Shown here piece by piece: positions 1,354 to 22,197 of a DNA stretch of 32,000 nucleotides. The notes under the pieces are model-generated. The model saw nothing but the letters and a program-made list of their open reading frames with translations, did no database searches and had not been told where the DNA came from. The number at the start of each line of letters is the position of its first letter. Position 1 is the first letter of the stretch. Both the position numbers and the translations under genes were made by a program. Where the stretch lies: assembly GCA_965224465.1 (NCBI GenBank), contig OZ245049.1, forward strand, positions 3,300,001 to 3,332,000, read 5' to 3'. Source of the stretch: Flavobacteriaceae bacterium (GTDB lineage Bacteria; Bacteroidota; Bacteroidia; Flavobacteriales; Flavobacteriaceae).

Positions 1354-1381
1354 TTGAACATGTTAATAAGTTGTAAATTTG
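1354..1381 (+). promoter_or_regulatory. Candidate Bacteroidetes sigma-A promoter for module 1
   Basis: TTG at 1354..1356 and TAAATTTG at 1374..1381 with a 17-nt spacer match the TTG / TAnnTTTG consensus. It is 46 nt upstream of the ATG at 1427. Confidence 0.45.
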
Positions 1382-1426
1382 CAAAGCAATAAAAAGTTGC
1401 AATCAAACATTTTTATCAATTCAAAT

Positions 1427-4147: not shown

Positions 4148-4174
4148 TAAAAAAATTAAATAAAATATTCAACA

Positions 4175-6923: not shown

Positions 6924-7027
6924 ACGTGTTTAGGAAAGAGTAAAAAACAAACAAATATTTTTTAATTCGCTTCTTTTCTGTAACTTATAAAAAATTGCAA
7001 CCCCTTTTTAATTTTTAATTGCGAATT

Positions 7028-9751
7028 ATGAAAGAAATAATGAGTGTATTGCTCATCTGTTTGTGCGTGAATACATCTGTAAACGCACAGTCACGATGTA
7101 GTGTAAAAGGGATGGTGATTAGTGAGCGGTCAAATGCACCTTTATTGGGAGTGACAGTTCAAATCTTAGAAACATCTATATCGGACACTAGCAATGTGAA
7201 AGGGGAATTTAATCTCAAAAAATGTACCGCTGGAAAACAGGTGCTTAAGGTTCAATTACAAGGTTTTGAATCTTTAAAAGTTACGGTGTATTGCGTAGAA
7301 GGCAAAGAAATAGACCTTGGTTTTTTGGTCTTATCTAGAATGGTTGATGTATTGAACCAAGGAAGTGTTATTGCTATTTCAGAACTAGAGTTGTTAGATG
7401 ATGAAGGAACTGCTGATAATGTTTCTGGGGTGCTATCTGCTTCTAAAGATGCCTTTTCTAGAGCTGCCGCCTACAGTTTTGGTCAGGCGTGGTTTCGGGT
7501 TCGGGGTTATGACTCTAGATATGCGACAGTGATGATCAATGGTATTACAATGAATAAAATGTATGGTGGTCGTCCACAGTGGAGTAATTGGGGAGGTTTG
7601 AATGATGCGACCAGAAATCAAGAAGTTACTTTTGGATTGGCGCTCTCAGAGACTACTTTTGGAGATCTCGTAGGAACTACTAATATGATTACCACTGCCT
7701 CTCTGTATCGTCCTGGTACAAAAGTTACCGTTTCTGCGAGCAATAAAAGTTATAAAGGAAGGCTGATGGTGACATACGCTTCTGGCTTAAAAAACAAATG
7801 GGCCTATGTAGTTTCTGCCTCGAGACGATTTGCCAAAGAAGGCTATTTTCAAGGCTCGTATTATGATGCAAATTCCTTTTTTACATCCGTAGAATATCAA
7901 CCTAGCGCCAAACAGCATTTTAATTTAACGGCTATTTATGCTCAAAATAAACGAGGTAAAAATTCAGGACATACACAGGAAGTATGGGACTTGATGGGAA
8001 GAAAATACAATGCGTATTGGGGGCGTCAGGAAGGAAAAAAAAGAAATGCAAGAGTAAAGGAAGTAAGCGAACCTATAGTCATGTTGTCACATCAATTACA
8101 GTTCACAAATAAAACGGAGCTAAATACAAGTGTTGCATATCAATTTGGACATATAGGAAATAGCAGATTGGGCTATTATAAACAACAAAATCCAGACCCG
8201 ACGTATTATCGAAACCTACCGAGTTATTTTCAAGCAAACGACCCCCTAAATCCGGATATTGTCTCAGAAACAGTAAGCGCTTTTAAACAGGATGCTCATA
8301 GAAATCAGATTGATTGGCTAGACTTATATAAAACAAATAATGCCTTACAGAACCAAAATGCGGGGTATTATTTATATGAAGATAGAAATACGGATAGACA
8401 ATGGAGTGTACAAAGTGTTATGTCTACAGCATTGACCGAATATGCGAGTGTAAATTTAGGCTTGCGTTTTGTGAATTTTAAGAGTCAAAATTACGCAAAA
8501 ATGCTAGGTCTTTTAGGCGCTTCTTATTTTATGGATAGGGATGGTTTTAATAATACGTCCAATAACTTATTGTCAGATAATCCCATTTTAAAAGGGGATA
8601 AATTTAGGTATTACTATCTATTGTCAGTTCACAAAAATAGTATTTTTGGACAGTATCAATATCAAAAAAACAAGATAGATGCCTTTGCTTCTGCCCAATT
8701 CATAAATACTACCTATCAGCGAGAAGGACGGTTTCAAAACGAATTGTACAAGGAGAATTCATTGGGTTTGGGTAAAAAAACAACATTCGATACGCCACAG
8801 CTTAAAATGGGTATTACGTATAAAATTACTGGCCGTCATTTGTTAAGTCTAAATGCAGCAAGCATCTCTAAAGCGCCTACTTTACGGAATAGTTATTCCA
8901 ATGCTCGTGTGAATAATGATGTGGTTTTGAACCTAGAAAACGAGAAAATAAACACGGTAGATATTGGCTATATTCACAGGTCTCCTTTGATAAAATCCCG
9001 TATAACGGGCTATTATACGTCTTTTTCAAAAGGAAGCAAGATTTCAAGATATTACGACCAGAATTTAGGGGAGTTTGTAGCAGAAGTTTTGACGGATATA
9101 GAAAAAATTCATTGTGGTGTTGAAGTGAGTTTTGAATGCAAAATTAGCAGCGCGGTAAACGCTACTTTTGTAGCTGCTATTGGGAATTATACGTATGCTA
9201 ACAATCCTCAAAGTTATTATACTTCGGATCAGTCTTTGCTGGGGGCTGTAAATCCTGTTCCTACTTTTTTAAAGGGCTATCGTACTGCTGGTACGCCTCA
9301 ACAAGCTTTTTCTTTGGGAGTAGATTACCGTTCTCAAAATTATTGGTGGCTTGGAATAAATGCCAATCATTTATCACATACGTATGTAGATGTCGCTGCA
9401 GGCTTGCGAACGGAGCGTTTTTATACAAACCCTGTAACCAACCAATTGTATGCCAATGTGACAATGCAAGATGTGAAAGATATTTTAGTGCAAGAGCAGT
9501 TTGATAGCTATGTTCTTGTAAATATTATTGGTGGGAAATCTTGGAAGGTCAAAAAAAAGTATATCAGTTTGTTTATAAGTGCTAGTAATGTGCTGAATAC
9601 GAACTATAAAACGGGGGGTTATGAACAAGGAAGGTATGGGAATTATACATTATTAAAAAAAGATAAAGAAAGAGCAACTCCCATGTTTGGTGCTAAATAT
9701 TGGATGGGATATGGCTACTCGTATTACCTTAATCTATCGGTAAGTTTTTAG
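7028..9751 (+). CDS. CarboxypepD_reg-domain TonB-dependent-receptor-like outer-membrane barrel (paralog 2)
   Basis: The track ORF starts at TTG 7019; the first ATG is at 7028 (MKEIMSVLLICLCVNTSVNAQ). It is collinear with 1427..4147 and shares long identical runs such as GRPQWSNWGGLNDATRNQEVT, ITGRHL and TAGTPQQA. It ends ...YLNLSVSF. Confidence 0.8.
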   Translation: MKEIMSVLLICLCVNTSVNAQSRCSVKGMVISERSNAPLLGVTVQILETSISDTSNVKGEFNLKKCTAGKQVLKVQLQGFESLKVTVYCVEGKEIDLGFLVLSRMVDVLNQGSVIAISELELLDDEGTADNVSGVLSASKDAFSRAAAYSFGQAWFRVRGYDSRYATVMINGITMNKMYGGRPQWSNWGGLNDATRNQEVTFGLALSETTFGDLVGTTNMITTASLYRPGTKVTVSASNKSYKGRLMVTYASGLKNKWAYVVSASRRFAKEGYFQGSYYDANSFFTSVEYQPSAKQHFNLTAIYAQNKRGKNSGHTQEVWDLMGRKYNAYWGRQEGKKRNARVKEVSEPIVMLSHQLQFTNKTELNTSVAYQFGHIGNSRLGYYKQQNPDPTYYRNLPSYFQANDPLNPDIVSETVSAFKQDAHRNQIDWLDLYKTNNALQNQNAGYYLYEDRNTDRQWSVQSVMSTALTEYASVNLGLRFVNFKSQNYAKMLGLLGASYFMDRDGFNNTSNNLLSDNPILKGDKFRYYYLLSVHKNSIFGQYQYQKNKIDAFASAQFINTTYQREGRFQNELYKENSLGLGKKTTFDTPQLKMGITYKITGRHLLSLNAASISKAPTLRNSYSNARVNNDVVLNLENEKINTVDIGYIHRSPLIKSRITGYYTSFSKGSKISRYYDQNLGEFVAEVLTDIEKIHCGVEVSFECKISSAVNATFVAAIGNYTYANNPQSYYTSDQSLLGAVNPVPTFLKGYRTAGTPQQAFSLGVDYRSQNYWWLGINANHLSHTYVDVAAGLRTERFYTNPVTNQLYANVTMQDVKDILVQEQFDSYVLVNIIGGKSWKVKKKYISLFISASNVLNTNYKTGGYEQGRYGNYTLLKKDKERATPMFGAKYWMGYGYSYYLNLSVSF

Positions 9752-9768
9752 AATTTAAAGAAAATGTG

Positions 9769-12447
9769 ATGAAAAGATATAGAATGTTTTTTTTAGGCTT
9801 GATAATTTTATGTTTTTCTACATGTGTGGAGGATCAAAATTTTAAGACACCTGAAACTACGTGTATTCCACCAGTTTTGAAAGTAAATGCAACCATTGGA
9901 GAGGTGAAATCACTTTATAAAGGTACGGTAACACAAATTAAAGAAAAATTAATTATTGAAGGTTATGTGATTTCCTCAGATCTAAAAGGGAACTTTTATA
10001 GAACGTTGCACTTTCAAAATAGCCCAGATAATCCTACGGATGGTTTACAGTTAGATGTTGATATGCAACAGATGTACACAATGTATCCAGTAGGGAGTAA
10101 AATCATTATAAATACCCAAGGGTTGTATATTGATAATTACCATGGTGTACTAAAAATAGGAGGATTGTATCCGAAGTTTGGTGGTGGGGTTGGAGTTGGG
10201 CGCTTGTCTAGTGTATTGGCAAAAAAAGTAGTGCTTGTATCCTGTGATCCTCCAGTAAAAATAATTCCTAGACTTGTGAAAATTGAGGACTTAGATGATG
10301 CCATGATTCATACTCTTATTAAATTTGACAAGGTAGAAATTGCACCAGATTCACAGTGTCAGTCGTATGCTTTAGCTTCCAAAAACACCAGTGTTTTTGT
10401 ACGTGATTGTGAAGGGAATAGTATTGTTTTAAGAACTAGTGGCTATGCCGATTTTCAATCCGAATTGTTACCAGTGGGTAGTGGAGAATTACATGCAATT
10501 TTAGGAAAGTATAATGATAAGTTTCAAGTGACAATCCGTGATACCAAAGACCTAAACTTTGAGGGTGATCGATGTAATGGGGAGCATTTTACCTGTGTGG
10601 CTCCTACTGTGAATACTACAATACAGGATGTTAAAAACAAGTATCAAGGATCCTTATTACAGTTGAAAGAATCTCTTGTTTTTGAAGGGGTAGTAACGGC
10701 AAATGATAAAAGTGGGAATGCGTATAAGTACATATATGTACAGGATAAAACGGGAGGAATAAAAATTAAGATCAATCAAAAAGAATTGTATTTACGGGGG
10801 TTTAGTATCGGAAAAAAAATAGTAGTTGTATCTCAAGATTTGTACATCGATTCGCTTAGTGGAGAATTACAACTTGGCGGTTTATACGAAGGGAATTTAG
10901 GCAATATAGAGCGCTATGACATATTTAAACATTTTTTTGTAAGTGATAAAACAGTTGTTTTAATGCCTGAAAATTTAATGTTAAATGAGCTGTCAATGGA
11001 GGAAATTGGACGTTTTATACGGATTGATAAGGTACAGTTTATGGAGAAGGAATTGAATTTTGTAAGCGAAAAATCGAATGGATCTACACGTACCTTGGTG
11101 GATTGTATGGCAAATACGATTGATGTTCGAACCAGTAAATATGCTAATTTTGCAAAGGCGAAACTTCCATCAAAAATGGGAGCGGTGCAAGGGGTGCTCG
11201 GTTTTTATAATGGGAATTTTCAATTGTTTTTTCGAGATATTAATGATGTAAAATTGATGACAGAAGAACCCTGCAATGCCGTCGAAAATGGAAAATTTGT
11301 TACGGTGTCCGAAGTTCGGGATATGTTTTCAGGTTCGGTATTGAACAGCATTCAAAATATAAAAATAAAAGCTGTGATTACCTCGAATGCAGCTGAATTG
11401 AATATCACAGAAATTAGTGCTTTTATACAAGATAAAACAGCTGCTATTGCGCTTCGTTTTAGTAGTGCTCATGGCTTGAAATTCGGAGATGAAGTGGAAC
11501 TTTCTTTATTGGGTGCTAGTTTGGAAGAGTATAAAGGATTGTTACAGTTAAATCATATTCCAGTGGCGAATATTATCAGTACTCAGCCAGGTTTTTTACC
11601 GAGTCCGAAAACAATTACGCTGCCGCAAGCCTTGACTGGGGATTTCGAATCTATGTTGGTTAGGATCAAAAAAATTCAATTTAAAGATGTAGGAAAAACG
11701 TATAAAGGAGAGAATAAAATCACAGATTGTGTGAACGATTTAAATGTATATGTGCGTTATCAGTCCTTGTTTTCTGGGTTTAAAGTGAATGGGAAAAATG
11801 GTGATGTTACTGGGATTATGACGCAGTATGAAGTGCCACAACTCTATCTTAGAAAATCTTATGATGTTACTTTTTATGATGATTATATAGACTGTGCTTC
11901 GGTAGGAACTGTTGATTTTCCGCTTTTTATTTCAGAGATAGCAGACCCCAATAATAATTCTGGAGCGCGATTTATAGAACTGTACAATTCCTCCAGCGAT
12001 GTACAAAGTATGAATGGATGGCAGTTAAAACGGTATACAAATGCAAATACAACGAGTACAAAAAGCATTCAATTAGAAGGCTACACGATTCCTGCCAATA
12101 GTGCTTTTGTGATTTCTCCAAATGCATCAGAATTTTTGAAGATGTATGGATTTGAACCTGATTTAGGAGTTTCAAAAGGAGGTCCTGCAGATTCTAATGG
12201 AGACGATACCATTGTCTTATTAAATCCTACTGGTGAGGTGGTGGATATTTTTGGACGAATTGGGGAGGATGGTTCTGGAACCAATCACGAGTTTGAGGAT
12301 GGACGTGCTTTAAGAAATAAAAGTGTAGAGGTAGGAAATGCTGTTTTTAGCTTTTCAGAATGGACTGTTTGGAACGATACAGGTGCTGCGAATACAATAA
12401 AAGAACCACAAAATGCTCCCGATGATTTTAGCCCTGGAATTCGGTAA
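9769..12447 (+). CDS. Lipoprotein with three DUF5689-type repeats and a C-terminal lamin-tail domain (paralog 2)
   Basis: The track ORF starts at GTG 9766; ATG is at 9769. Lipobox ILCFSTC. It has the same three-repeat plus LTD layout as 4175..6868 (VNATIGEVKSLY, VNTTIQDVKNKY, VTVSEVRDMF; LFISEIADPNNNSGARFIELYNSS...NGDDTIVL). Confidence 0.75.
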   Translation: MKRYRMFFLGLIILCFSTCVEDQNFKTPETTCIPPVLKVNATIGEVKSLYKGTVTQIKEKLIIEGYVISSDLKGNFYRTLHFQNSPDNPTDGLQLDVDMQQMYTMYPVGSKIIINTQGLYIDNYHGVLKIGGLYPKFGGGVGVGRLSSVLAKKVVLVSCDPPVKIIPRLVKIEDLDDAMIHTLIKFDKVEIAPDSQCQSYALASKNTSVFVRDCEGNSIVLRTSGYADFQSELLPVGSGELHAILGKYNDKFQVTIRDTKDLNFEGDRCNGEHFTCVAPTVNTTIQDVKNKYQGSLLQLKESLVFEGVVTANDKSGNAYKYIYVQDKTGGIKIKINQKELYLRGFSIGKKIVVVSQDLYIDSLSGELQLGGLYEGNLGNIERYDIFKHFFVSDKTVVLMPENLMLNELSMEEIGRFIRIDKVQFMEKELNFVSEKSNGSTRTLVDCMANTIDVRTSKYANFAKAKLPSKMGAVQGVLGFYNGNFQLFFRDINDVKLMTEEPCNAVENGKFVTVSEVRDMFSGSVLNSIQNIKIKAVITSNAAELNITEISAFIQDKTAAIALRFSSAHGLKFGDEVELSLLGASLEEYKGLLQLNHIPVANIISTQPGFLPSPKTITLPQALTGDFESMLVRIKKIQFKDVGKTYKGENKITDCVNDLNVYVRYQSLFSGFKVNGKNGDVTGIMTQYEVPQLYLRKSYDVTFYDDYIDCASVGTVDFPLFISEIADPNNNSGARFIELYNSSSDVQSMNGWQLKRYTNANTTSTKSIQLEGYTIPANSAFVISPNASEFLKMYGFEPDLGVSKGGPADSNGDDTIVLLNPTGEVVDIFGRIGEDGSGTNHEFEDGRALRNKSVEVGNAVFSFSEWTVWNDTGAANTIKEPQNAPDDFSPGIR

Positions 12448-12458
12448 TTTCAAATGAT

Positions 12459-12595
12459 GGTTTAGAAATGGAATTATTTTTTGTTTTAACTAGACGAAAA
12501 CTCTAAGGATAGCCCTATCTATTGTTCTGTTTTTTAACAACGCTAGAACGTAAAACAACCTATTTATATCGATTATTTTGGATTGTAATTGGTAG
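12459..12595 (+). repeat. Right copy of the ~135-bp inverted repeat (partner at 50..182)
   Basis: ggtttagaaatggaattattttttgttttaactagacgaaaactctaaggatagccctatctattgttctgttttttaacaacgctagaacgtaaaacaacctatttatatcgattattttggattgtaa. It starts 12 nt after the stop at 12447. Relative to the flanking gene it has the same orientation as the left copy. Confidence 0.8.
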
Positions 12596-12619: not shown

Positions 12620-12792
12620 TCTGATTTAGAATTACACTTGTTATTTCTATCAAAAATAGAGATAGCTAAAAATATTAATTTTTCTGTGCGAGCGTACATT
12701 GTGGGGCATATTGTAGATTGTTTGTATAAGTGTCAATAAAAATTAAATAAAAACGATATGTATAAAAATAAAGAATTTATTTATCTGTTGTT
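12620..12792 (+). pseudogene. Decayed internal fragment of an I2-type immunity-like lipoprotein gene
   Basis: It aligns by eye to 17511..17690 inside the 17280..17837 gene (tctgatttagaatta...gagatagctaaaaa...gcgagcgtacattg.ggggcatattgtagattgtttgtataagtgtcaa.aaaaattaaataaaaacgata.gtataaaaa). It has a small deletion and an in-frame TAA where the intact gene has GAA. Both gene ends are missing. Confidence 0.85.
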
Positions 12793-13062: not shown

Positions 13063-13434
13063 ATGGGAAAAATTAAAATTAAGAGCTCGACTGTAGCAAA
13101 AATAATTATTGACAAAAAAGGATATGGAACAATAAAAAATGAAAATAAGGAATATGAGATAGAAAATGGACAACACGAAATTTATGCTAAATCTGCTTGG
13201 TGTGGTAGTCAAAAAATAACAGTAAATATTACAGATGATAAAATTATAACATTGACTCTAAATAGTTTTAAAAATGAAGGTATTGTTAAAGCTGTATTTA
13301 TGTTATTAGCTGGACTTCTTATATTTACTAAAAACGTAATCTTCGGGATAATTGCAGGGGTAGTGTTTTTGTATCCATTATATTATGTAACAATTGGAAA
13401 AGATAAATATTTAGAATTAGTTGAGATTACATAA
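13063..13434 (+). CDS. Hypothetical small membrane protein
   Basis: 123-aa ORF with ATG preceded by an A-rich leader. The soluble N-half is followed by two hydrophobic stretches (AVFMLLAGLLIF, IFGIIAGVVFLYPLYYV). I recognise no family. Confidence 0.5.
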   Translation: MGKIKIKSSTVAKIIIDKKGYGTIKNENKEYEIENGQHEIYAKSAWCGSQKITVNITDDKIITLTLNSFKNEGIVKAVFMLLAGLLIFTKNVIFGIIAGVVFLYPLYYVTIGKDKYLELVEIT

Positions 13435-13582: not shown

Positions 13583-13590
13583 TATATTTG
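13583..13590 (+). promoter_or_regulatory. Candidate -7 box upstream of the tssD-like gene
   Basis: TATATTTG is a perfect TAnnTTTG. The nearest upstream TTG (13554..13556) is 26 nt away, which is longer than usual. The box lies ~185 nt upstream of the ATG at 13774. Confidence 0.25.
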
Positions 13591-13773: not shown

Positions 13774-14460
13774 ATGAGTTTTAAACTTAAAGTATTTATT
13801 GATGGAGAAGAAAGTAATGTATTAAGATATAACTTAAATTTAAGTCAAAGTTCTGACATTACAGGAAGACCTACTCAAAAACCTGTCTTACAAAAACTTT
13901 TATTAGTGTTAGAATCTAACAATAAAATTGATTTGATGCAGTGGATGATTTCTCCAAATCAAACTAAACAAATAGAACTGCACATTCAAGAACGACAAGG
14001 AGAAAGAACAAGAATTCTTTACTTTTCGGATGTTAACTTAGTCGGTTTAGAAACCACATTTTCTGCTACAGGAAATATACCTATGACAGATAATTTACAG
14101 ATTACTGCTGCAGGGCTCAATACAAACAATTCTGCTGTTGAATATTCTGCATCTTGGAGAACTACTTTTCCTGAACAAGAAGCAGAAGTAACAACTATTG
14201 AGCAAGAAAGAAAAATAACTAGTTATTACTTAACGAATACAGAAAATAATAAGATAGAAGATTATAATATTGATGATATTATATTGTTGAATATTAAAAC
14301 TGAAAATCGAATAGGAGATGTAATGACCATCAACTTAAATGATAAAAAGCATGATTTTGAATATAACGGAATTATCTTAGAGAACGATACTCTTAAAAAC
14401 ATTAAAATTGAAAATAATTTAGAACAAATTGAGTTAAAAGTAGTAGCTCAAACAGTATAA
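13774..14460 (+). CDS. tssD: Type VI secretion tube protein TssD/Hcp-like with a ~100-aa C-terminal extension
   Basis: The track ORF starts at TTG 13696; ATG 13774 follows an A/C-rich leader. The N-terminal ~128 aa follow the Bacteroidetes TssD pattern as I recall it: MSFKLKVFIDGEESNVLRYNLNLSQSSDITGRPTQKP, LESNNKIDLMQWMISPNQTK, YFSDVNLVGLETTF, IPMTDNLQITAAGL, ...SASW. Residues ~129-228 (14158..14457) are extra. Confidence 0.65.
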   Translation: MSFKLKVFIDGEESNVLRYNLNLSQSSDITGRPTQKPVLQKLLLVLESNNKIDLMQWMISPNQTKQIELHIQERQGERTRILYFSDVNLVGLETTFSATGNIPMTDNLQITAAGLNTNNSAVEYSASWRTTFPEQEAEVTTIEQERKITSYYLTNTENNKIEDYNIDDIILLNIKTENRIGDVMTINLNDKKHDFEYNGIILENDTLKNIKIENNLEQIELKVVAQTV

Positions 14461-14464
14461 ACGT

Positions 14465-16078
14465 ATGAAAAAAACAGGATTTACCATCTCATTTGAAGAC
14501 GGAGAAACGTTAACAAGATATTTAACACCAGTATTACAAGCAGAATATATAGTTGCCATAAAACCAAAAGATTTTGATGGAAGTTATGGAATAGATTGGT
14601 GTGAAATGAGTACTGACCTTACAAAAATTGAAAAATTTCAAGAAACCAATGTAGCAGATATTAGCCACGTTCTAGATAAAGCTACAACACAATTTAAGGC
14701 TAGCCCAACAACTCAAGATAAACAAAATTATGTCCGAGACTTATATGTTTTTGAAAGTTATTACGGAAAAGAGATGCCTATTACTTGGGTAAACTTAGCC
14801 TACGATAAGGTAGCAACTTTAGAGATAACGCCTTTGTTAATAAATGGTAAAAGGAATAAAAAAACAGATTTTTTAACCATTGAGAAAAATGACAATTTTA
14901 AAATATCATACAAGGGGACTACTGATGAAGACAGTAATCCGAATATAAAAATAGAAAAACTGAAAGATGGCAAAGCTCAAGAAATTGAAATTACAGCGTT
15001 AAAAACTTTTTCTCAAGCGCAAGAAATAATTATAAAAGATTATTTAGGAAAAGAAGTCGGAAAAATAGAAATGGTAGCTAATGATGTGCTAGATTTAAAT
15101 GTGAAAATTATTCCAGTAGTACTCAATCATACTTCACAAGTAGCAGATGCTCAAAATATATATGCTGCTGCAATAAAAGCAGAAAACATTGATAAGGATA
15201 GTCTAAAAACAACATTACAAACTAAATCATTTAACCAAACAGGTGTAAACTGTATTATAGAACCCCTAAAAGCTATTCCAGAATGCATAGTAATAGATGT
15301 TACTAAAGACAATTGGAGTGAGTTTTATAAAGGAGGCATATTTCAAAATTGGGATTATTCCAGTACAACGGTAAAACCTATTGTTTCTAAAGATGAAGAT
15401 GGAGATAAACGCTATCATACTAGAGATATGGGGACGGAACGTTTTTTACTTGATAAATTAGAAGATCATTATTATAAAAAATACGGAAAAAATCATAAGG
15501 GAGCCTTGGTTTTTGTTACAGATAAAAATTATATAATTCCAAATTTACAAGGCTATTCGCAAACAGACCCTATACGAAGCCAAGGAACAGTTATATTTAA
15601 ACCTGGTTTAGGTGATGCTACTGTTTATGCGCACGAATTAGGGCATATGTTAGGACTTGAACATAACTTTGTTAATGATATTAATGAACTTACAAGCATA
15701 AATGATAACTTAAATAATTTAACACGCAACAAAAGTGTTGCCGATAAAAAACAAGAAATCGAAGAAGATATAGCTTTTAAAGAAAATTATATTAAAGTAG
15801 ATATAGAAAAAATAAACGATTTGAAAACGGTACGTGAACAATCACAATCTATAAAAAATAAAATTTTAGATATCCAAGAAGCAATTAAAAACACTCAAAA
15901 TTCTATCATCCAACTAAAGGATAAATTACAAAGAATAGATATTAAAACTACTACAGCTAATTTTAAAGTAACAAAAGGTAAATCTAAAAACTATATGGAT
16001 TATATAAATAACAGAACTTTTTTTAGTAAATATCAATCCCAAATAGTAAAAGAGGAGCTTATTAAATTTTATATATGA
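14465..16078 (+). CDS. Putative T6SS-associated polymorphic effector with a metzincin-type zinc metallopeptidase domain
   Basis: 537 aa with no signal peptide (MKKTGFTISFEDGETL). The ATG lies 5 nt after the tssD-like stop. The zinc motif HELGHMLGLEH (15632..15664) is HExxHxxGxxH. The Met-turn-like NYMDY (15989..16003) resembles the M43 ulilysin/pappalysin flavour. The stop overlaps the next ATG (ATGA at 16075..16078). Confidence 0.7.
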   Translation: MKKTGFTISFEDGETLTRYLTPVLQAEYIVAIKPKDFDGSYGIDWCEMSTDLTKIEKFQETNVADISHVLDKATTQFKASPTTQDKQNYVRDLYVFESYYGKEMPITWVNLAYDKVATLEITPLLINGKRNKKTDFLTIEKNDNFKISYKGTTDEDSNPNIKIEKLKDGKAQEIEITALKTFSQAQEIIIKDYLGKEVGKIEMVANDVLDLNVKIIPVVLNHTSQVADAQNIYAAAIKAENIDKDSLKTTLQTKSFNQTGVNCIIEPLKAIPECIVIDVTKDNWSEFYKGGIFQNWDYSSTTVKPIVSKDEDGDKRYHTRDMGTERFLLDKLEDHYYKKYGKNHKGALVFVTDKNYIIPNLQGYSQTDPIRSQGTVIFKPGLGDATVYAHELGHMLGLEHNFVNDINELTSINDNLNNLTRNKSVADKKQEIEEDIAFKENYIKVDIEKINDLKTVREQSQSIKNKILDIQEAIKNTQNSIIQLKDKLQRIDIKTTTANFKVTKGKSKNYMDYINNRTFFSKYQSQIVKEELIKFYI

Positions 16079-16094
16079 AAACAATAAGTATTTT
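15491..16094 (+). repeat. Exact 604-nt direct repeat, copy 1 (expressed effector 3' third plus first 20 nt of the downstream gene)
   Basis: Block-by-block comparison with 17861..18464 shows no mismatch, with an offset of exactly 2370 nt. Identity starts at aatcataagggagcc. It ends at 16095 (t) versus 18465 (a). Confidence 0.9.
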
Positions 16095-16656
16095 TAAAAA
16101 GATTAGTTTACTATATGTTTTTATAGTTTTTGTTTCTTGTAGTTCTTCTATGGTGCTTAAGTACAATACTATACCTGCTGGGGGGGTTGCTTACAAGCAA
16201 CTTGATGTTTTTGGAGGATATATATGGCACAGAGATAAAAAAGGAAAAATTAATATTAATAAAAAAAATCTTCAAAATATTTACATAATTACTAAAAATG
16301 GTAATGAAGACTATTTTGAATTTTTAGAGAGTTATTCTTTTTTTTTATGCAGTCATAGTGATAAACGTCGTATCGCTAAGAGTTTAAATTTTTCAGAAAG
16401 AACTTTGGTTGCAGCTTATTGTGTAGAGTATCTTTATAAATGTCAAAAAGAAATTAGTGAAAGTAATATGTATAAAAATTACAGGTTAGTTAGACTTTTT
16501 TTGAGAACAGATAACGGCGATAGTAACAAGTACAATCGAGAGTTCAAAAAACACGATTACTACGGTTTAAAATTATTAAAAAAACACCATTTAAAACATT
16601 ATAAATATTTCCCGGATTTAGATACAATACGCTATAAAAAAAGTATTAGTGATTAA
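16075..16656 (+). CDS. Lipoprotein, putative immunity protein I1
   Basis: 193 aa with lipoprotein signal MKTISIFKKISLLYVFIVFVSC. It is translationally coupled to the effector (ATGA). It shares the invariant C-terminal tail NKYNREFKKHDYYGLKLLKKHHLKHYKYFPDLDTIRYKKSISD with six downstream paralogs. Confidence 0.7.
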   Translation: MKTISIFKKISLLYVFIVFVSCSSSMVLKYNTIPAGGVAYKQLDVFGGYIWHRDKKGKININKKNLQNIYIITKNGNEDYFEFLESYSFFLCSHSDKRRIAKSLNFSERTLVAAYCVEYLYKCQKEISESNMYKNYRLVRLFLRTDNGDSNKYNREFKKHDYYGLKLLKKHHLKHYKYFPDLDTIRYKKSISD

Positions 16657-16679
16657 AGATGTAGGGTTAATGCTTCTCT

Positions 16680-17270
16680 AATCATAAGGGAGCCTTGGTT
16701 TTTGTTACAGATAAAAATTATATAATTCCAAATTTACAAGGCTATTCGCAAACAGACCCTATACGAAGCCAAGGAACAGTTATATTTAAACCTGGTTTAG
16801 GTGATGCTACTGTTTATGCGCACGAATTAGGGCATATGTTAGGACTTGAACATAACTTTGTTAAAGATTTTAAAGATCTTACAAGCATAAATGATGACTT
16901 AAATAATTTAACACGCAACAAAAGTGTTGCCGATAAAAAACAAGAAATCGAAGAAGATATAGCTTTTAAAGAAAACTATATAAATGATGATATAAAAAAA
17001 GTAGAAGAATTAAAAGTTAAAGATAAACTATCAGAAAAAGAAAAAAAAGAACTGCAGGGATTACAAGAAAATATTGATGAAACAGAAAAATCTATTCAGA
17101 AATTAAGAAATAGGTCACAAAAGATAGATGTACAAACCACTGTAGCTAATTTGAAAGTAGCTGAAGGAAAAACTAAAAACTATATGGACTATATAAGTAA
17201 TAGAATTTATTTTGCTAAATACCAAGCAGAAATAGTGAAGAAAGAAGTTGTCGATTTTTATCAAAAATAA
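16680..17270 (+). pseudogene. Start-less effector C-terminal cassette B (orphan/silent toxin module, divergent variant)
   Basis: It is homologous to effector codons ~343-537. The first ~184 nt are identical to 15491.., and it diverges after ~300 nt. It keeps HELGHMLGLEH and NYMDY. An in-frame TAA lies 4 codons upstream of the homology start and there is no ATG. The M at 16695 in the track is a TTG that encodes Leu in the full-length gene. Confidence 0.8.
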
Positions 17271-17279
17271 AATAAGATT

Positions 17280-17837
17280 ATGAATTTTATAAAAAGAAGT
17301 AGTTCTCTTCTTATTGTTTTATGTTTGTTTTTTTCATGCACTACATATAAAAAAATAACAGAAGAGAGTTTAATTGATGAAACATTTCCTGACATCAATG
17401 TTTATGGTGGGTTTTTATGGTCTAAGAAAAAAAATAAGACTATATTAATTCATTACAAAAATTTGAAACGAATAATTAAATTAACAAAAAAAAGTGATAA
17501 TATTTTTTTTTCTGATTTAGAATTATACCTGTTGTTTCTGTCAAAAAAGAGAAAAGAGATAGCTAAAAACATTAACTTTTCTGAGCGAGCGTACATTGCG
17601 GGGCATATTGTAGATTGTTTGTATAAGTGTCAAGAAAAATTAAATAAAAACGATAGGTATAAAAACAAGGAATTTATTTATCGATTATTGTCTCCGTGGG
17701 ATAGTAACAAGTACAATCGAGAGTTCAAAAAACACGATTACTACGGTTTAAAATTATTAAAAAAACACCATTTAAAACATTATAAATATTTCCCGGATTT
17801 AGATACAATACGCTATAAAAAAAGTATTAGTGATTAA
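17280..17837 (+). CDS. Lipoprotein, putative immunity protein I2 (most divergent N-terminal two thirds)
   Basis: 185 aa with lipobox LCLFFSC. The ATG lies 9 nt after the cassette B stop. It has the same invariant C-terminal tail as I1. Confidence 0.7.
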   Translation: MNFIKRSSSLLIVLCLFFSCTTYKKITEESLIDETFPDINVYGGFLWSKKKNKTILIHYKNLKRIIKLTKKSDNIFFSDLELYLLFLSKKRKEIAKNINFSERAYIAGHIVDCLYKCQEKLNKNDRYKNKEFIYRLLSPWDSNKYNREFKKHDYYGLKLLKKHHLKHYKYFPDLDTIRYKKSISD

Positions 17838-17860
17838 AGGTGTAGGGTTAATGCTTCTCT

Positions 17861-18448
17861 AATCATAAGGGAGCCTTGGTTTTTGTTACAGATAAAAATT
17901 ATATAATTCCAAATTTACAAGGCTATTCGCAAACAGACCCTATACGAAGCCAAGGAACAGTTATATTTAAACCTGGTTTAGGTGATGCTACTGTTTATGC
18001 GCACGAATTAGGGCATATGTTAGGACTTGAACATAACTTTGTTAATGATATTAATGAACTTACAAGCATAAATGATAACTTAAATAATTTAACACGCAAC
18101 AAAAGTGTTGCCGATAAAAAACAAGAAATCGAAGAAGATATAGCTTTTAAAGAAAATTATATTAAAGTAGATATAGAAAAAATAAACGATTTGAAAACGG
18201 TACGTGAACAATCACAATCTATAAAAAATAAAATTTTAGATATCCAAGAAGCAATTAAAAACACTCAAAATTCTATCATCCAACTAAAGGATAAATTACA
18301 AAGAATAGATATTAAAACTACTACAGCTAATTTTAAAGTAACAAAAGGTAAATCTAAAAACTATATGGATTATATAAATAACAGAACTTTTTTTAGTAAA
18401 TATCAATCCCAAATAGTAAAAGAGGAGCTTATTAAATTTTATATATGA
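17861..18448 (+). pseudogene. Start-less effector C-terminal cassette A' (identical to the expressed effector 3' third)
   Basis: It is 100% identical to 15491..16078 and is preceded by the unit-end motif ...gttaatgcttctct. There is no ATG; the track start at 17876 is the same internal TTG (Leu). Its stop overlaps the next ATG at 18445..18448. Confidence 0.8.
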
Positions 18449-18464
18449 AAACAATAAGTATTTT
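17861..18464 (+). repeat. Exact 604-nt direct repeat, copy 2
   Basis: See 15491..16094. Confidence 0.9.
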
Positions 18465-19020
18465 AAAAAAGATTAGTGTATTCTTTATTTTTGTTTTGGT
18501 TGTTTCTTGTAAACCTACAAAAACACTAAAATCTAACACGATAATAAAAGGTGCCTCTACCTATGAACAACTTAATAAGTTTGGAGAATATATATGGTTC
18601 AAGGATTCAAAAGGAAAAGTTAATATTAATAAAAAAAATCTTCAAAACATTTATACAATTACTAAAAATGGTAATGAAGAATATTTTTATTTTTTAACAT
18701 CCTACTCTTATCTTTTAGTTGTTGATAAATCAAATATTGCTAAGAGTTTAAATTTTTCAGAAAGAACTTTGCTTGCAGCTTATTGTGTAGAAAACCTCTA
18801 TAAATGTCAAAAAGAAATTAGTGAAAACAATATGTATAAAAATTACAGGTTTGTTAGACTTTTTTTGAGAACAGATAACGGCGATAGTAACAAGTACAAT
18901 CGAGAGTTCAAAAAACACGATTACTACGGTTTAAAATTATTAAAAAAACACCATTTAAAACATTATAAATATTTCCCGGATTTAGATACAATACGCTATA
19001 AAAAAAGTATTAGTGATTAA
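18445..19020 (+). CDS. Lipoprotein, putative immunity protein I3
   Basis: 191 aa with lipobox FVLVVSC. ATGA overlap with cassette A'. Invariant C-terminal tail. Confidence 0.7.
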   Translation: MKTISILKKISVFFIFVLVVSCKPTKTLKSNTIIKGASTYEQLNKFGEYIWFKDSKGKVNINKKNLQNIYTITKNGNEEYFYFLTSYSYLLVVDKSNIAKSLNFSERTLLAAYCVENLYKCQKEISENNMYKNYRFVRLFLRTDNGDSNKYNREFKKHDYYGLKLLKKHHLKHYKYFPDLDTIRYKKSISD

Positions 19021-19175
19021 AGGTGTAGGGTTAATGCTTCTCTAATCAAATGTGTAGTGTGATTTATGTTAGTTTAAGTAATACTAAAGCTAGTTCTAGA
19101 AATGTAATCCACTTAGAATAAGAAAGTTTACTTTAGAATCAATTATTATAAGTTACCTGAAATTAAATGGGGACT

Positions 19176-19228
19176 GTAAATATCAATCCCAAATTGTAAA
19201 AGAGGAGGTCATTAAATTTTATAAATGA
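19176..19228 (+). pseudogene. 53-nt vestige of the effector 3' end (unit 1)
   Basis: gtaaatatcaatcccaaattgtaaaagaggaggtcattaaattttataaatga matches effector 16026..16078 (gtaaatatcaatcccaaatagtaaaagaggagcttattaaattttatatatga). The ATGA overlap with the next gene is retained. An in-frame stop lies upstream. Confidence 0.8.
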
Positions 19229-19800
19229 AAACAGTAAATAATTTAAAAAAGATAGGTGTATTCTTTATTTTTGGTTTGGTTGTTTCTTGTAAAACTACAA
19301 AAACACTAAAATATAGTACTTTGATAAAAGGAGAGTCAGTTTACAAGAGATTTGATGTTTTTGGAGGATATATATGGCACAGAGATAAAACAGGGAAAAT
19401 TAATATTAACAAAAAAAATCTTCAAAATATTTACATAATTACTAAAGGAGGAAATGACGCGTTTTTTGAATATCTAGATCTTTATACACGACATTTATGT
19501 GGGCATAAACGGCGTGTTTCTAATAGTTTAAATTTTCCAGAAAGAACCTTAGTTGTTGCTTATTGCGTTGAGTATCTTTATAAATGTCAAAAAGAAATTA
19601 GTAAAAATAATATGTATAAAAATTATAAGTTTGTTTATCGTTTTTTGAGAACAGATAACGGCGATAGTAACAAGTACAATAGAGAATTAAAAAAACACGA
19701 TTACTACGGTTTAAAATTATTAAAAAAACACCATTTAAAACATTATAAATATTTCCCGGATTTAGATACAATACGCTATAAAAAAAGTATTAGTGATTAA
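19225..19800 (+). CDS. Lipoprotein, putative orphan immunity protein I4
   Basis: 191 aa with lipobox FGLVVSC and the invariant tail (REL instead of REF at its start). Confidence 0.7.
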   Translation: MKTVNNLKKIGVFFIFGLVVSCKTTKTLKYSTLIKGESVYKRFDVFGGYIWHRDKTGKININKKNLQNIYIITKGGNDAFFEYLDLYTRHLCGHKRRVSNSLNFPERTLVVAYCVEYLYKCQKEISKNNMYKNYKFVYRFLRTDNGDSNKYNRELKKHDYYGLKLLKKHHLKHYKYFPDLDTIRYKKSISD

Positions 19801-19955
19801 AGGTGTAGGGTTAATGCTTCTCTAATCAAATGTGTAGTGTGATTTATGTTAGTTTAAGTAATACTAAAGCTAGTTCTAGAAATCTAATCCCCTTAGAGTA
19901 AGAAAGTTTACTTTAGAATCAATTATTATAAGTTGCCTGAAATTAAATGGGGATT

Positions 19956-20008
19956 GTAAATATCAAGCCCAAATTGTAAAAGAGGAGTTAATTAAATTTT
20001 ATAGATGA
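19956..20008 (+). pseudogene. 53-nt vestige of the effector 3' end (unit 2)
   Basis: It occupies the same position and has near-identical sequence to 19176..19228. Confidence 0.8.
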
Positions 20009-20580
20009 AAACAATAAATAATTTAAAAAAGATAGGTGTATTCTTTATTTTTGGTTTGGTTGTTTCTTGTAAAACTACAAAAACACTAAAATCTGCTACC
20101 ATAATAACAGGGGAATCTATTTACGACCAATTTGACAATTTTGGAGAATATATATGGTACAGAGATAAAAAAGGAAAAATTAATATTAACAAAAAAAATC
20201 TTAAAGAAATTTATAATATCACTAAAAAAGGAAATGAAGAATCTTTTGAATTTTTACAGAGTTACACCTTGCATTTAAGTAGTGATAAACGTCGTGTCGC
20301 TAAAGGTTTAAACTTTTCAGAAAGAACCTTGGTTGCTGCTTATTGCGTAGAGTACCTCTACAAGTGTGAAAAAGAAATTAGCAAAGAAAATATGTATAAA
20401 AATTATAGGTTTGTTAGACGCTTTTTGAGACCATATGGTAGCGATATAAATAACTACAATCGAGAATTAAAAAAACACGATTACTACGGTTTAAAATTAT
20501 TAAAAAAACACCATTTAAAACATTATAAATATTTCCCGGATTTAGATACAATACGCTATAAAAAAAGTATTAGTGATTAA
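20005..20580 (+). CDS. Lipoprotein, putative orphan immunity protein I5
   Basis: 191 aa with lipobox FGLVVSC. The middle is variable (…RFLRPYGSDINNYNREL…) and the tail is invariant. Confidence 0.7.
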   Translation: MKTINNLKKIGVFFIFGLVVSCKTTKTLKSATIITGESIYDQFDNFGEYIWYRDKKGKININKKNLKEIYNITKKGNEESFEFLQSYTLHLSSDKRRVAKGLNFSERTLVAAYCVEYLYKCEKEISKENMYKNYRFVRRFLRPYGSDINNYNRELKKHDYYGLKLLKKHHLKHYKYFPDLDTIRYKKSISD

Positions 20581-20735
20581 AGGTGTAGGGTTAATGCTTC
20601 TCTAATTAAATGTGTAGTGTGATTTATGTTAGTTTACGTAATACTAAAGCTAGTTCTAGAAATTTAATCCCCTTAGAATAAGAAAGTTTATTTTAGAATC
20701 AATTATTATAAGTTGCCTGAAATTAAATGGGGACT

Positions 20736-20788
20736 GTAAATATCAATCTCAAATAGTAAAAGAGGAGTTAATTAAATTTTATAAATGA
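20736..20788 (+). pseudogene. 53-nt vestige of the effector 3' end (unit 3)
   Basis: It occupies the same position and has near-identical sequence to 19176..19228. Confidence 0.8.
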
Positions 20789-21351
20789 AAACAATAAATA
20801 ATTTTAAAAAGATAAGTGTATTCTTTATTTTTGTTTTGGTTGTTTCTTGTAAACCTACAAAAACACTAAAATCTAATACCGAAATTATAGGGAGATCTGC
20901 TTATGACGAGTATAATGCTTTTGGAGAATATATATGGTATAGAGATAGTAAAGGGGGAATTAGTATTAATAAAAAAAATCTCAAAAAAATTTATGCAATG
21001 ACTAAAAAAGGAAATATAGAATATTTTGAATTTTTAGAGGGTTATACTGCACATTTAAGTAGGGATAAACGGCGTGTTGCTAAAAGTTTGAATTTTTCAG
21101 AAATAACTTTTGTTACAGCTTATTGTGTAGAGAACCTCTATAAGTGTCAAAAAGTAATTAGCAAAAATAATTTCTTTAAAAAGTATAAATTTGTTAATCG
21201 TTTTTTAGGAGTAAATATTAACAAGTACAATCGAGAGTTCAAAAAACACGATTACTACGGTTTAAAATTATTAAAAAAACACCATTTAAAACATTATAAA
21301 TATTTCCCGGATTTAGATACAATACGCTATAAAAAAAGTATTAGTGATTAA
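20785..21351 (+). CDS. Lipoprotein, putative orphan immunity protein I6
   Basis: 188 aa with lipobox FVLVVSC. It has a 3-codon deletion relative to its paralogs just before the invariant tail. Confidence 0.7.
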   Translation: MKTINNFKKISVFFIFVLVVSCKPTKTLKSNTEIIGRSAYDEYNAFGEYIWYRDSKGGISINKKNLKKIYAMTKKGNIEYFEFLEGYTAHLSRDKRRVAKSLNFSEITFVTAYCVENLYKCQKVISKNNFFKKYKFVNRFLGVNINKYNREFKKHDYYGLKLLKKHHLKHYKYFPDLDTIRYKKSISD

Positions 21352-21506
21352 AGGTTTAGGGTTAATGCTTCTCTAATCAAATGTGTAGTGTGATTTATGT
21401 TAGTTTACGTAATACTAAAGCTAGTTCTAGAAATCTAATCCCTTTAGAATAAGAAAGTTTATTTTAGAATCAATTATTATAAGTTGCCTGAAATTAAATG
21501 GGGACT

Positions 21507-21559
21507 GTAAATATCAATCCCAAATTGTAAAAGAGGAGGTCATTAAATTTTATATATGA
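21507..21559 (+). pseudogene. 53-nt vestige of the effector 3' end (unit 4)
   Basis: It occupies the same position and has near-identical sequence to 19176..19228. Confidence 0.8.
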
Positions 21560-22131
21560 AAACAATAAATAATTTTATAAAGATAAGTGTATTCTTTGTT
21601 TTTGTTTTGGTTGTTTCTTGTAAACCTACAAAAACACTAAAATCTAACACGATAATAAAAGGTGCCTCTACCTATGAACAACTTAATAAGTTTGGAGAAT
21701 ATATATGGTTCAAGGATTCAAAAGGAAAAGTTAATATTAATAAGAAAAATCTCGAAAAAATTCATATAATCTCGAAAAAAGGGAATATAGAATATTTTAA
21801 TCTTTTAACATCTTACTCTTATCTTTTAGATGTTGATAAATCAAATATTGCTAAAAGTTTAAATTTTTCAGAAAGAACTTTGGTTGTAGCTTATTGTGTA
21901 GAATGCCTCTATAAATGTCAAAAAGAAATTAGTAAAAACAATATGTATAAAAATTATAAGTTTGTTTATCGTTTTTTGAGAACAGATAACGGCGATAGTA
22001 ACAAGTACAATCGAGAGTTCAAAAAACACGATTACTACGGTTTAAAATTATTAAAAAAACACCATTTAAAACATTATAAATATTTCCCGGATTTAGATAC
22101 AATACGCTATAAAAAAAGTATTAGTGATTAA
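21556..22131 (+). CDS. Lipoprotein, putative orphan immunity protein I7 (mosaic of I3-, I6- and I4-like segments)
   Basis: 191 aa with lipobox FVLVVSC. 21621..21750 is nucleotide-identical to the matching part of I3 (18511..18640). The C-terminal half matches I4 (SKNNMYKNYKFVYRFLRTDNGDSNKYNRE). Confidence 0.7.
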   Translation: MKTINNFIKISVFFVFVLVVSCKPTKTLKSNTIIKGASTYEQLNKFGEYIWFKDSKGKVNINKKNLEKIHIISKKGNIEYFNLLTSYSYLLDVDKSNIAKSLNFSERTLVVAYCVECLYKCQKEISKNNMYKNYKFVYRFLRTDNGDSNKYNREFKKHDYYGLKLLKKHHLKHYKYFPDLDTIRYKKSISD

Positions 22132-22197
22132 AGGTGTAGGGTTAATGTCTCGTAGTTAGATAGTTGTCTAAGTGTTGTGTTTGTGCTTTTTAATTTG

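Follow-up and report, generated by a model that had tools for sequence, protein, structure and literature searches.

An Hcp-linked effector-immunity array with silent effector tips and homogenised gene ends in a Flavobacteriaceae genome

A stretch of 32,000 nucleotides from a Flavobacteriaceae bacterium (assembly GCA_965224465.1, contig OZ245049.1, positions 3,300,001 to 3,332,000; hereafter the window) contains a low-GC island in which a gene for an Hcp protein, a full-length gene for a putative metzincin-like effector, two truncated copies of the effector's 3′ end (orphan tips) and seven paralogous immunity genes (I1 to I7) are arranged in tandem. We consider it likely, with a probability of about 0.75 for the explanation as a whole, that this is a horizontally acquired accessory island of a type VI secretion system (T6SS) that has grown into a polymorphic-toxin array. 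Its exchangeable parts are bracketed by two homology arms, one in the effector gene and one at the 3′ end of the immunity genes, and the identity of these arms among the copies appears to be the result of concerted evolution within the genome.

Layout of the array and its arms

All genes of the island lie on the + strand. The 537-aa effector gene, which occupies the presumed expression site, is immediately followed by I1, then by tip B with its partner I2, by tip A′ with I3, and finally by four immunity-only units (I4–I7), as listed in Table 1. Both tips begin at effector codon 343 and thus are missing the N-terminal 342 residues. An in-frame stop lies four codons upstream of them, and no ATG precedes the HELGHM motif (none occurs before residue 53). 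Having neither a start codon nor a delivery domain, the orphan tips are silent. Each tip is followed by an immunity gene of its own.

Upstream of its variable part, each tip carries an exact copy of the 5′ arm. The initial annotation of the window had matched cassette B to the effector gene for about 184 nt, with sporadic mismatches up to about 300 nt and divergence thereafter, and this description holds well: the exact run is 185 nt, identity amounts to 98% over 300 nt, and it then falls to 53–68%. At synonymous sites, tips A (that of the full-length gene) and B show no difference over residues 343–404 (0 in 40.3 synonymous sites), and the proportion of synonymous differences (pS) then rises from 0.05 (residues 405–442) to 0.46 (443–502) and 0.62 (503–537). 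Cassette A′, on the other hand, is a perfect 604-nt copy of the expression site (15491–16094 = 17861–18464), a point absent from the initial annotation. The identity takes in the first 20 nt of the two immunity genes, beyond which these are diverged (pS 0.37, 79% amino acid identity). Judged from the sequence, the sharp end of this tract is probably the footprint of a recent conversion or duplication involving the expression site.

The 3′ arm comprises the last 111 nt of the immunity genes. From AAAAAACACGATTACTACGG onward, all seven are 100% identical, in agreement with the initial annotation, and all 21 pairwise comparisons, with about 17.3 synonymous sites per pair (Nei-Gojobori method), are free of synonymous differences. 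The gene middles have a pS of 0.34–0.78, with I3/I7 (0.11) as the lone exception. A sliding-window alignment of the kind that had been proposed gives an identity of 0.50–0.87 along the gene body and of 1.00 from alignment nucleotide 481. The block of 28 nt behind the stop codon had been described as equally invariant over about 27 nt; it is indeed nearly identical, but six copies differ at 3 of its 28 positions (AGA for AGG in I1, GTT for GTG in I6, and a terminal AATTA for AATCA in I5). The seventh copy, that of I7, diverges 16 nt past the stop because the array ends there, with its right edge at 22147. It had also been stated that each cassette is flanked by arms on both sides. This is true of B (16680–17865) and A′ (17861–19048) but not of the four later units, as only these two carry an effector tip and hence both arms.

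The immunity-only units recur with a period of about 780 nt (780, 780, and 771 nt), and each is headed by a 204-nt spacer, in which the 28-nt post-stop block is followed by about 125 nt of unassigned origin and then by a remnant of about 50 nt of the effector 3′ end (the last 16 codons, matching 16027–16078). In these units, a conserved block extends from the gene 3′ end (about 135 nt, 97% identity) through the spacer (95.4%) into the start of the next gene (94.8% over 90 nt), while the identity of the cores is 75.6%. The array consists of non-identical paralogues whose high-identity blocks lie at the gene ends and in the intergenic regions.

Table 1. Features of the array in window coordinates
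Feature	Coordinates	Strand	Basis and remarks
Hcp/TssD-like gene	13774..14460	+	Pfam PF17642 TssD, E = 4.4e-25, over curated cutoff
Full-length effector, 537 aa, expression site	14465..16078	+	Open reading frame (ORF); motifs in 19 homologues; AlphaFold (AF2) model
5′ homology arm, expression-site copy	15491..15675	+	Begins AATCA; exact 185-nt repeat at 16680-16864 and 17861-18045
Immunity gene I1	16075..16656	+	ORF and alignment; start overlaps effector stop (ATGA)
3′ arm and 28-nt post-stop block, I1	16546..16684	+	Last 111 nt of I1 and post-stop block ending AATCA
Orphan effector tip B	16680..17270	+	5′-truncated at effector codon 343
Immunity gene I2, tip B partner	17280..17837	+	50% protein identity to I1; core pS vs other six 0.62-0.78
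3′ arm and post-stop block, cassette B	17727..17865	+	Sequence identity
Orphan effector tip A′	17861..18448	+	Perfect copy of 15491-16078; identity runs on to 18464
Immunity gene I3, A-type	18445..19020	+	79% amino acid identity to I1; core mosaic with I7 and I6
Inter-unit spacer	19021..19224; repeats 19801-20004, 20581-20784, 21352-21555	+	Alignment; 95.4% mean pairwise identity
Orphan immunity gene I4	19225..19800	+	ORF, alignment
Orphan immunity gene I5	20005..20580	+	ORF, alignment; 99.3% identical copy in L014
Orphan immunity gene I6	20785..21351	+	ORF, alignment; two L014 copies, one 100% identical and one with a 13-nt deletion
Orphan immunity gene I7	21556..22131, and 16 nt post-stop to 22147	+	Homology with other units stops there

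Recombination and the origin of the identical arms

Recombination between the paralogues is supported by a permutation test on runs of matching polymorphic sites. This test, which resembles GENECONV but is neither GENECONV nor RDP itself, follows the suggestion of the initial annotation that gene conversion be tested for. It is significant for five pairs, namely I3–I6, I3–I7, I4–I5, I4–I7, and I6–I7 (p <= 0.0005, the floor of 2000 permutations).

A second line of evidence comes from L014, a 6.2-kb independent contig of a close relative from ENA, which was found through a truncated I6 homologue and serves as the sole source for variation within the species: the 24-nt core of the arm has no exact match in metagenome contigs, and exact look-ups of the effector, I1, and I2 returned no contig. 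Its units are ordered I7′ (99.1% identity), I6 with a 13-nt deletion, I5′ (99.3%), I6 (100%), an IS21 element, and I7 (99.7%), so that copy number and order differ between close strains. An identical locus structure in all related strains, which had been named as an observation that would speak against recombination, is thus not what is seen. Its first unit (a) matches the window's I6 unit with 0 mismatches in the spacer and 5′ block but then carries an I7 core, again with 0 mismatches, and in its unit d the spacer of the I7 unit is joined to an I6 core. These chimeric units indicate that crossovers within the conserved block have brought cores together with new flanks. The IS21-family element (istA/istB, L014 3283–5817) sits in the I6–I7 spacer with a 7-bp target duplication, ATCAATT.

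The comparison between genomes shows at which level the arm is conserved. Its 26-aa motif NKYNREFKKHDYYGLKLLKKHHLKHY has a proportion of nonsynonymous differences (pN) of 0.02–0.10 between genomes, with a pS of 0.70–1.0 and above, and a pS of 0 within the present genome. Synonymous sites that are saturated between genomes and invariant within one imply that the arms are homogenised genome by genome and that their DNA is not a conserved site. Paralogues in two other genomes show a weaker form of this pattern (pS of arm vs core, 0.10 vs 0.49 for b/c in L002 and 0.23 vs 0.55 for a/b in L001).

The initial annotation had offered either concerted evolution or selection on the DNA as a recombination substrate. 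Concerted evolution is well supported by these values, whereas substrate selection is not required. The density of segregating sites is 7.8% in the spacer and 3/28 in the post-stop block, and at these densities 1.4–1.9 variable synonymous sites would be expected in the arm, with a probability of 0.16–0.26 of finding none. The invariance of the arm is thus no greater than that of the neighbouring non-coding DNA combined with protein constraint, and selection on a DNA substrate need not be invoked. Each arm lies where its protein is most strongly conserved, the 5′ arm over the effector's catalytic core and the 3′ arm over the C-terminal immunity helices. Such constrained segments retain enough identity for homologous recombination to keep acting there.

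With regard to the junction of the tip cassettes, AATCA occurs in the effector (15491–15495) and at the end of the post-stop block in front of both tips (16680–16684 and 17861–17865), and the preceding base differs (A vs T). The immunity-only units read CTCTAATCA|AATGTG after the gene, the effector reads AAAAATCA|TAAGGG, and the cassettes read CTCTAATCA|TAAGGG. The sharing of AATCA across the join, which had been noted before, is therefore a real 5-nt overlap of two parental contexts, but it does not mark a recurrent joining site. A random junction in this AT-rich region would show an overlap of at least 5 nt with P = 0.015. Both junction copies are part of a single near-perfect repeat of about 345 nt, in which one mismatch separates exact runs of 140 and 205 nt. 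This points to one illegitimate event that was later propagated and not to two joins, and AATCA is the one-off scar of that event.

Other genomes have other breakpoints. The join of the orphan effector fragment in L001 lies 14 nt past an immunity stop and at about effector residue 60; this fragment has a 5′ arm of its own (pS 0–0.15 over about 140 codons and 0.56–0.87 beyond), and in further genomes effector 3′ remnants of 30–46 codons precede orphan immunity genes. As they differ from genome to genome, the breakpoints seem to fit illegitimate, microhomology-assisted joining and not a recombination site.

Protein families, proposed mechanism, and alternatives

The effector is composed of a β-rich N-terminal domain, a domain that its motifs suggest to be metzincin-like (HELGHMLGLEH), a variable helical hairpin (residues ~405–500), and an invariant NYMDY. 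Its family is small, comprising 33 homologues with a closest identity of 57%, all from marine Flavobacteriaceae, including Tenacibaculum, Cellulophaga, Algibacter, Aquimarina, and Flavobacterium psychrophilum. In an alignment of 19 homologues, the HExxHxxGxxH residues (H390, E391, H394, G397, and H400) are invariant, as is N509-x-M511-D512-Y513, a candidate Met-turn, and residues 401–500 form the least conserved stretch across the family. In the AlphaFold model (mean predicted local distance difference test score, pLDDT, 78), helices 425–454 and 461–498 form a long hairpin that is predicted to be inserted between the zinc site and the candidate Met-turn. Pfam detected neither Rhs/YD repeats nor CdiA filamentous haemagglutinin domains in the effector, and its best PDB sequence match (E = 0.039) is uninformative. 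These proteins define an uncharacterised effector family with a metzincin-like domain and a hypervariable hairpin.

The seven immunity paralogues are 185–193 aa long, and each has, by sequence inspection, a signal peptide ending in Cys (Cys22 in I1), so they are predicted to be lipoproteins. No relative was found in Pfam, NCBIfam, or PDB by sequence, and none by fold with Foldseek and the predicted model, which is all-α (pLDDT 81.5). According to this model, the 3′ arm would encode confident helices (residues 152–175), which contain the most conserved motif of the family, and a disordered tail (176–193). The ratio of nonsynonymous to synonymous rates (dN/dS), averaged over the core, is about 0.4, which gives no blanket signal of positive selection. 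An uncharacterised family of lipoprotein immunity proteins is defined as well, and both families could be used to ask how immunity specificity is encoded.

Distant relatives of this immunity family were detected beside a SUKH/SMI1_KNR4 immunity-type gene (L016, 774–1583) and beside a DDE transposase (L015, 1043–2548), with 66–68% identity; these neighbourhoods suggest mixed immunity islands. It was also observed that L003 (348–6526 and 10001–10216), which belongs to the same uncultured Flavobacteriaceae genome as L001 and L010, contains an unrelated further toxin locus with the truncated 3′ piece of a toxin gene and with immunity-like lipoprotein genes that are duplicated and mosaic (94–96% repeats), and that a fragment of the present immunity family adjoins a transposase remnant there.

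In the mechanism that we propose, the specificity module would consist of the variable hairpin of the effector and the variable N-terminal two-thirds of an immunity lipoprotein facing the periplasm, bracketed by the zinc-binding effector core and the C-terminal immunity helices, both of which are strongly constrained. Ordinary homologous recombination, presumably dependent on RecA, would act on the brackets through unequal crossing-over, gene conversion between tandem units, and allelic replacement from related strains. In this way, the bracket segments would be homogenised to nucleotide identity while the cores stay old, distinct alleles, and the same process would duplicate, delete, and re-pair units. 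The effector-tip cassettes would have been created once, by an illegitimate join at AATCA of post-immunity sequence to effector codon 343, and the junction would later have been copied by homologous recombination. The boundaries of the exchangeable module would then fall on the most protein-constrained segments of both partners, which means that homology arms can arise without dedicated machinery.

Such a layout would also offer tip B a route into the expression site. A crossover between 15491–15675 and 16680–16864 would delete 1189 bp and express effector B together with I2, leaving the A-type immunity genes I3–I7 and the spare tip A′ in place, and a double crossover using the 3′ arm could install tip B without deletion. 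As with Rhs orphans, one crossover in the 5′ arm would suffice for switching, with no need of the 3′ arm. Expression-site switching is plausible but unproven, and we think it unlikely that RecA-mediated exchange at both arms moves tip B and I2 into the expression site at a meaningful rate, that is, as a functional switch. If it did, subpopulations could arise that kill their siblings, and A′/I3 and the A-type genes I3–I7 would protect switched cells and permit them to switch back. It would also be new for a T6SS metallopeptidase, in that the part swapped would be a hairpin between the zinc site and the Met-turn, an immunity-recognition exosite, and not a toxin domain.

The strongest version of switching would be a programmed one, in which the arms are selected as substrates and tips B and A′ are copied into the expression site at appreciable frequency by non-reciprocal RecA-mediated conversion, in the manner of pilE/pilS or vlsE. 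One expression site with silent 5′-truncated tips and perfect arms on both sides is what such a system would look like, the 604-nt tract shared with A′ resembles a recent conversion tract, and the 111-nt arm shows no variation in seven copies. However, this invariance is within the expectation calculated above, the arm DNA is not conserved between genomes, and the arms sit on the segments under the strongest protein constraint; moreover, only two tip cassettes exist and the tip in one matches the resident tip exactly, neither a cis element (hairpin or G-quadruplex, G4) nor an accessory gene was found, and a crossover in the 5′ arm alone is sufficient (PMC3967940). Programmed switching is accordingly an improbable account of the arms. 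Far less probable still is a site-specific system in which the conserved block serves as the attachment site of an integron-like or rAID-like tyrosine recombinase. The regular layout and the fixed end of the inter-unit block at CTCTAATCA in 5 of 7 units would agree with it, but the 32-kb window has no recombinase or integrase gene, the block contains no inverted repeat or stable hairpin, its DNA is not conserved in other genomes, and the positions of orphan junctions vary by genome. When arm and spacer were folded as DNA on both strands, they were less stable than shuffled sequences (z +0.9 to +1.4); no relevant hairpin, inverted repeat, or G4 motif was detected in the arms, and no Rfam family in the window. 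An integron-like or rAID-type array, for which an adjacent tyrosine recombinase and structured or conserved sites would be expected, was rejected, and a shufflon-like reading was considered and rejected as well.

Protein-level purifying selection alone, or a constraint on codons or RNA, would explain the arm without any recombination, and the arm does encode the most conserved immunity motif in the confident helices 152–175. The initial annotation had doubted that selection on the protein is enough, and rightly so: the synonymous sites of this motif are saturated between genomes (pS 0.7–1.0) and show no difference within this one, the disordered tail (176–193) varies between genomes and is nucleotide-identical here, the non-coding spacer is also 95% identical, and no RNA family or structure was found. 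We hold this explanation to be very unlikely. An assembly artefact, in which repeats were collapsed or mis-joined to give false identity or a false unit order, has scarcely better prospects. Perfect repeats of 140–604 nt exceed the k-mers of short-read assembly, and an order derived from short reads could be wrong. The source contig, however, is 5.24 Mb long, the same arms and spacers recur in the independent L014 together with the cores of I5, I6, and I7, at 99–100% identity, and the divergent cores are unique and anchor each unit.

Several points weigh against the explanation of the island as a T6SS-associated array reshaped by ordinary recombination. T6SS structural genes were not found in the 32-kb window, and secretion is deduced from the linkage to Hcp and from a homologue fused to VgrG. 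The metzincin assignment is read from motifs, as the effector matches the M10, M43, and reprolysin families of Pfam only weakly, with scores below cutoff, and Foldseek with the whole effector model was dominated by the N-terminal β domain and uninformative on a metzincin fold. L014, the lone relative assembly, covers the immunity-only part of the array. Finally, no expression-site recombinant was seen, and the protein collection contains no chimera of the effector N-terminus with tip B, although it lacks the native effector too, which makes this silence uninformative.

Island setting and comparison with known systems

The island (about 12.6–22.15 kb) has a GC content of 0.24–0.30, compared with 0.33–0.40 in its flanks, one of which consists of gene pairs for a TonB-dependent receptor and a DUF5689/lamin-tail-domain (LTD) protein, and the other of the housekeeping genes mgtE, ksgA, serS, and ribF. 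The TssD domain of Hcp occupies the N-terminal 128 aa and is followed by a C-terminal extension of about 100 aa that matches no Pfam family. This extension (residues ~130–228) is kept in the Hcp proteins of related loci, where tblastn matches span the whole protein, and it may be an adaptor for the downstream effector. The same Hcp gene precedes the effector in six related loci (L001, L002, L009, L010, L012, and L013), so that the Hcp-effector-immunity module recurs at six other loci in unrelated genomic contexts; L012 and L013 have a single immunity gene, and the remaining four have arrays and orphan effector pieces. The association with a T6SS thus lies in the TssD gene directly upstream of the effector and in the VgrG domain (PF04717) to which one effector homologue, P0024, is fused.

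Some other features occur upstream of Hcp. A pseudogene fragment of an I2-type immunity gene (12620–12785, + strand), located outside the array, is 89% identical to 17511–17682 with one in-frame stop and a 6-nt indel, which suggests an earlier arrangement of the island. Between this fragment and Hcp lies an ORF of 123 aa (13063–13434) that matches no family and whose C-terminal half is hydrophobic. The two tandem receptor and DUF5689/LTD pairs (1379–6868 and 7019–12447) represent an old duplication (stretches of 73–76% nucleotide identity at a 5.6-kb offset), and they are bracketed by two inverted copies of an intergenic element of about 140 nt (57–191, − strand, and 12448–12588, + strand; 86% identical). 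With regard to transcription, the Bacteroidetes −7 motif TAnnTTTG (TATATTTG) has a single + strand copy between the upstream gene and Hcp (13583–13590) and none in the four 204-nt spacers; the whole array may therefore be read through from one promoter, as this motif match hints. A scan for sigma-70 promoters gave hits at chance level, and terminator-like sites were few.

Several known systems share parts of this organisation. In Rhs and contact-dependent inhibition (CDI) loci (Poole et al. 2011, PMC3150448; Koskiniemi et al. 2014, PMC3967940), too, start-less truncated tips come after a full-length gene that includes a delivery region and after the immunity gene cognate to it. Every tip is paired with an immunity gene of its own and, directly ahead of its variable part, is homologous to the main gene. 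In Salmonella, experiments have shown that the orphan tip becomes fused to the main rhs gene by recombination across 522 bp of 95% identity (PMC3967940). The present effector, in contrast, is linked to Hcp and is neither an Rhs/YD-repeat nor a CdiA protein, its arm is shorter but perfect (185 nt), and a second arm lies in the immunity 3′ end. In addition, a helical hairpin within one catalytic domain varies here while the zinc site is unchanged, whereas whole unrelated toxin domains are exchanged in Rhs and CDI systems. The locus therefore works like Rhs/CDI loci yet, given the absence of Rhs and CdiA domains, stands outside those protein families.

The T6SS arrays of Vibrio cholerae also have orphan immunity genes downstream of the live pair, with partial effectors or 3′ remnants between them; they vary between close strains, and homologous as well as homology-facilitated illegitimate recombination, leading to sequential effector displacement, has been proposed for them (Kirchberger et al. 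2017, PMC5361080). Host phylum (here Bacteroidota) and Hcp type (here TssD) set the present locus apart from them. Their immunity genes, moreover, are of unrelated types, whereas the seven genes studied here all belong to a single family, and the homogenised ends and spacers of these paralogues make unequal crossing-over and conversion between units possible as well. Closer in this respect are the tandem immunity genes esaG and tipC, which form strings of non-identical paralogues with blocks of high similarity that include the gene 3′ end and the intergenic region, show significant recombination among paralogues at these blocks, and are gained or lost between close strains (Garrett et al. 2022, PMC9484751). 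On the other hand, they belong to Firmicutes, a type VII secretion system, and a nuclease toxin, and as described their arrays lack orphan toxin tips bearing a matching arm.

Antigenic variation at pilE/pilS of Neisseria and vlsE of Borrelia similarly pairs a single expression site with silent cassettes, which are partial and have conserved sequence at their borders. These systems draw on many such cassettes, transfer sequence non-reciprocally at high frequency, and use dedicated cis elements and factors, while the present locus has two silent tips and neither a G4 motif nor a hairpin was found in it.

In the literature searched, arrays of this kind have not been described from Flavobacteriaceae with the Bacteroidota-type T6SS, and no paper was found that joins gene conversion with tandem T6SS immunity genes. 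What is particular here is the host group, the uncharacterised effector and immunity families linked to Hcp, the hairpin as the swapped element, and the perfect arms on both sides. Taken together with the systems above, the locus is a clear new example of a known route of weapon reshuffling and not a new mechanism, and it provides a compact and quantitatively clean case of the diversification of interbacterial weapons.

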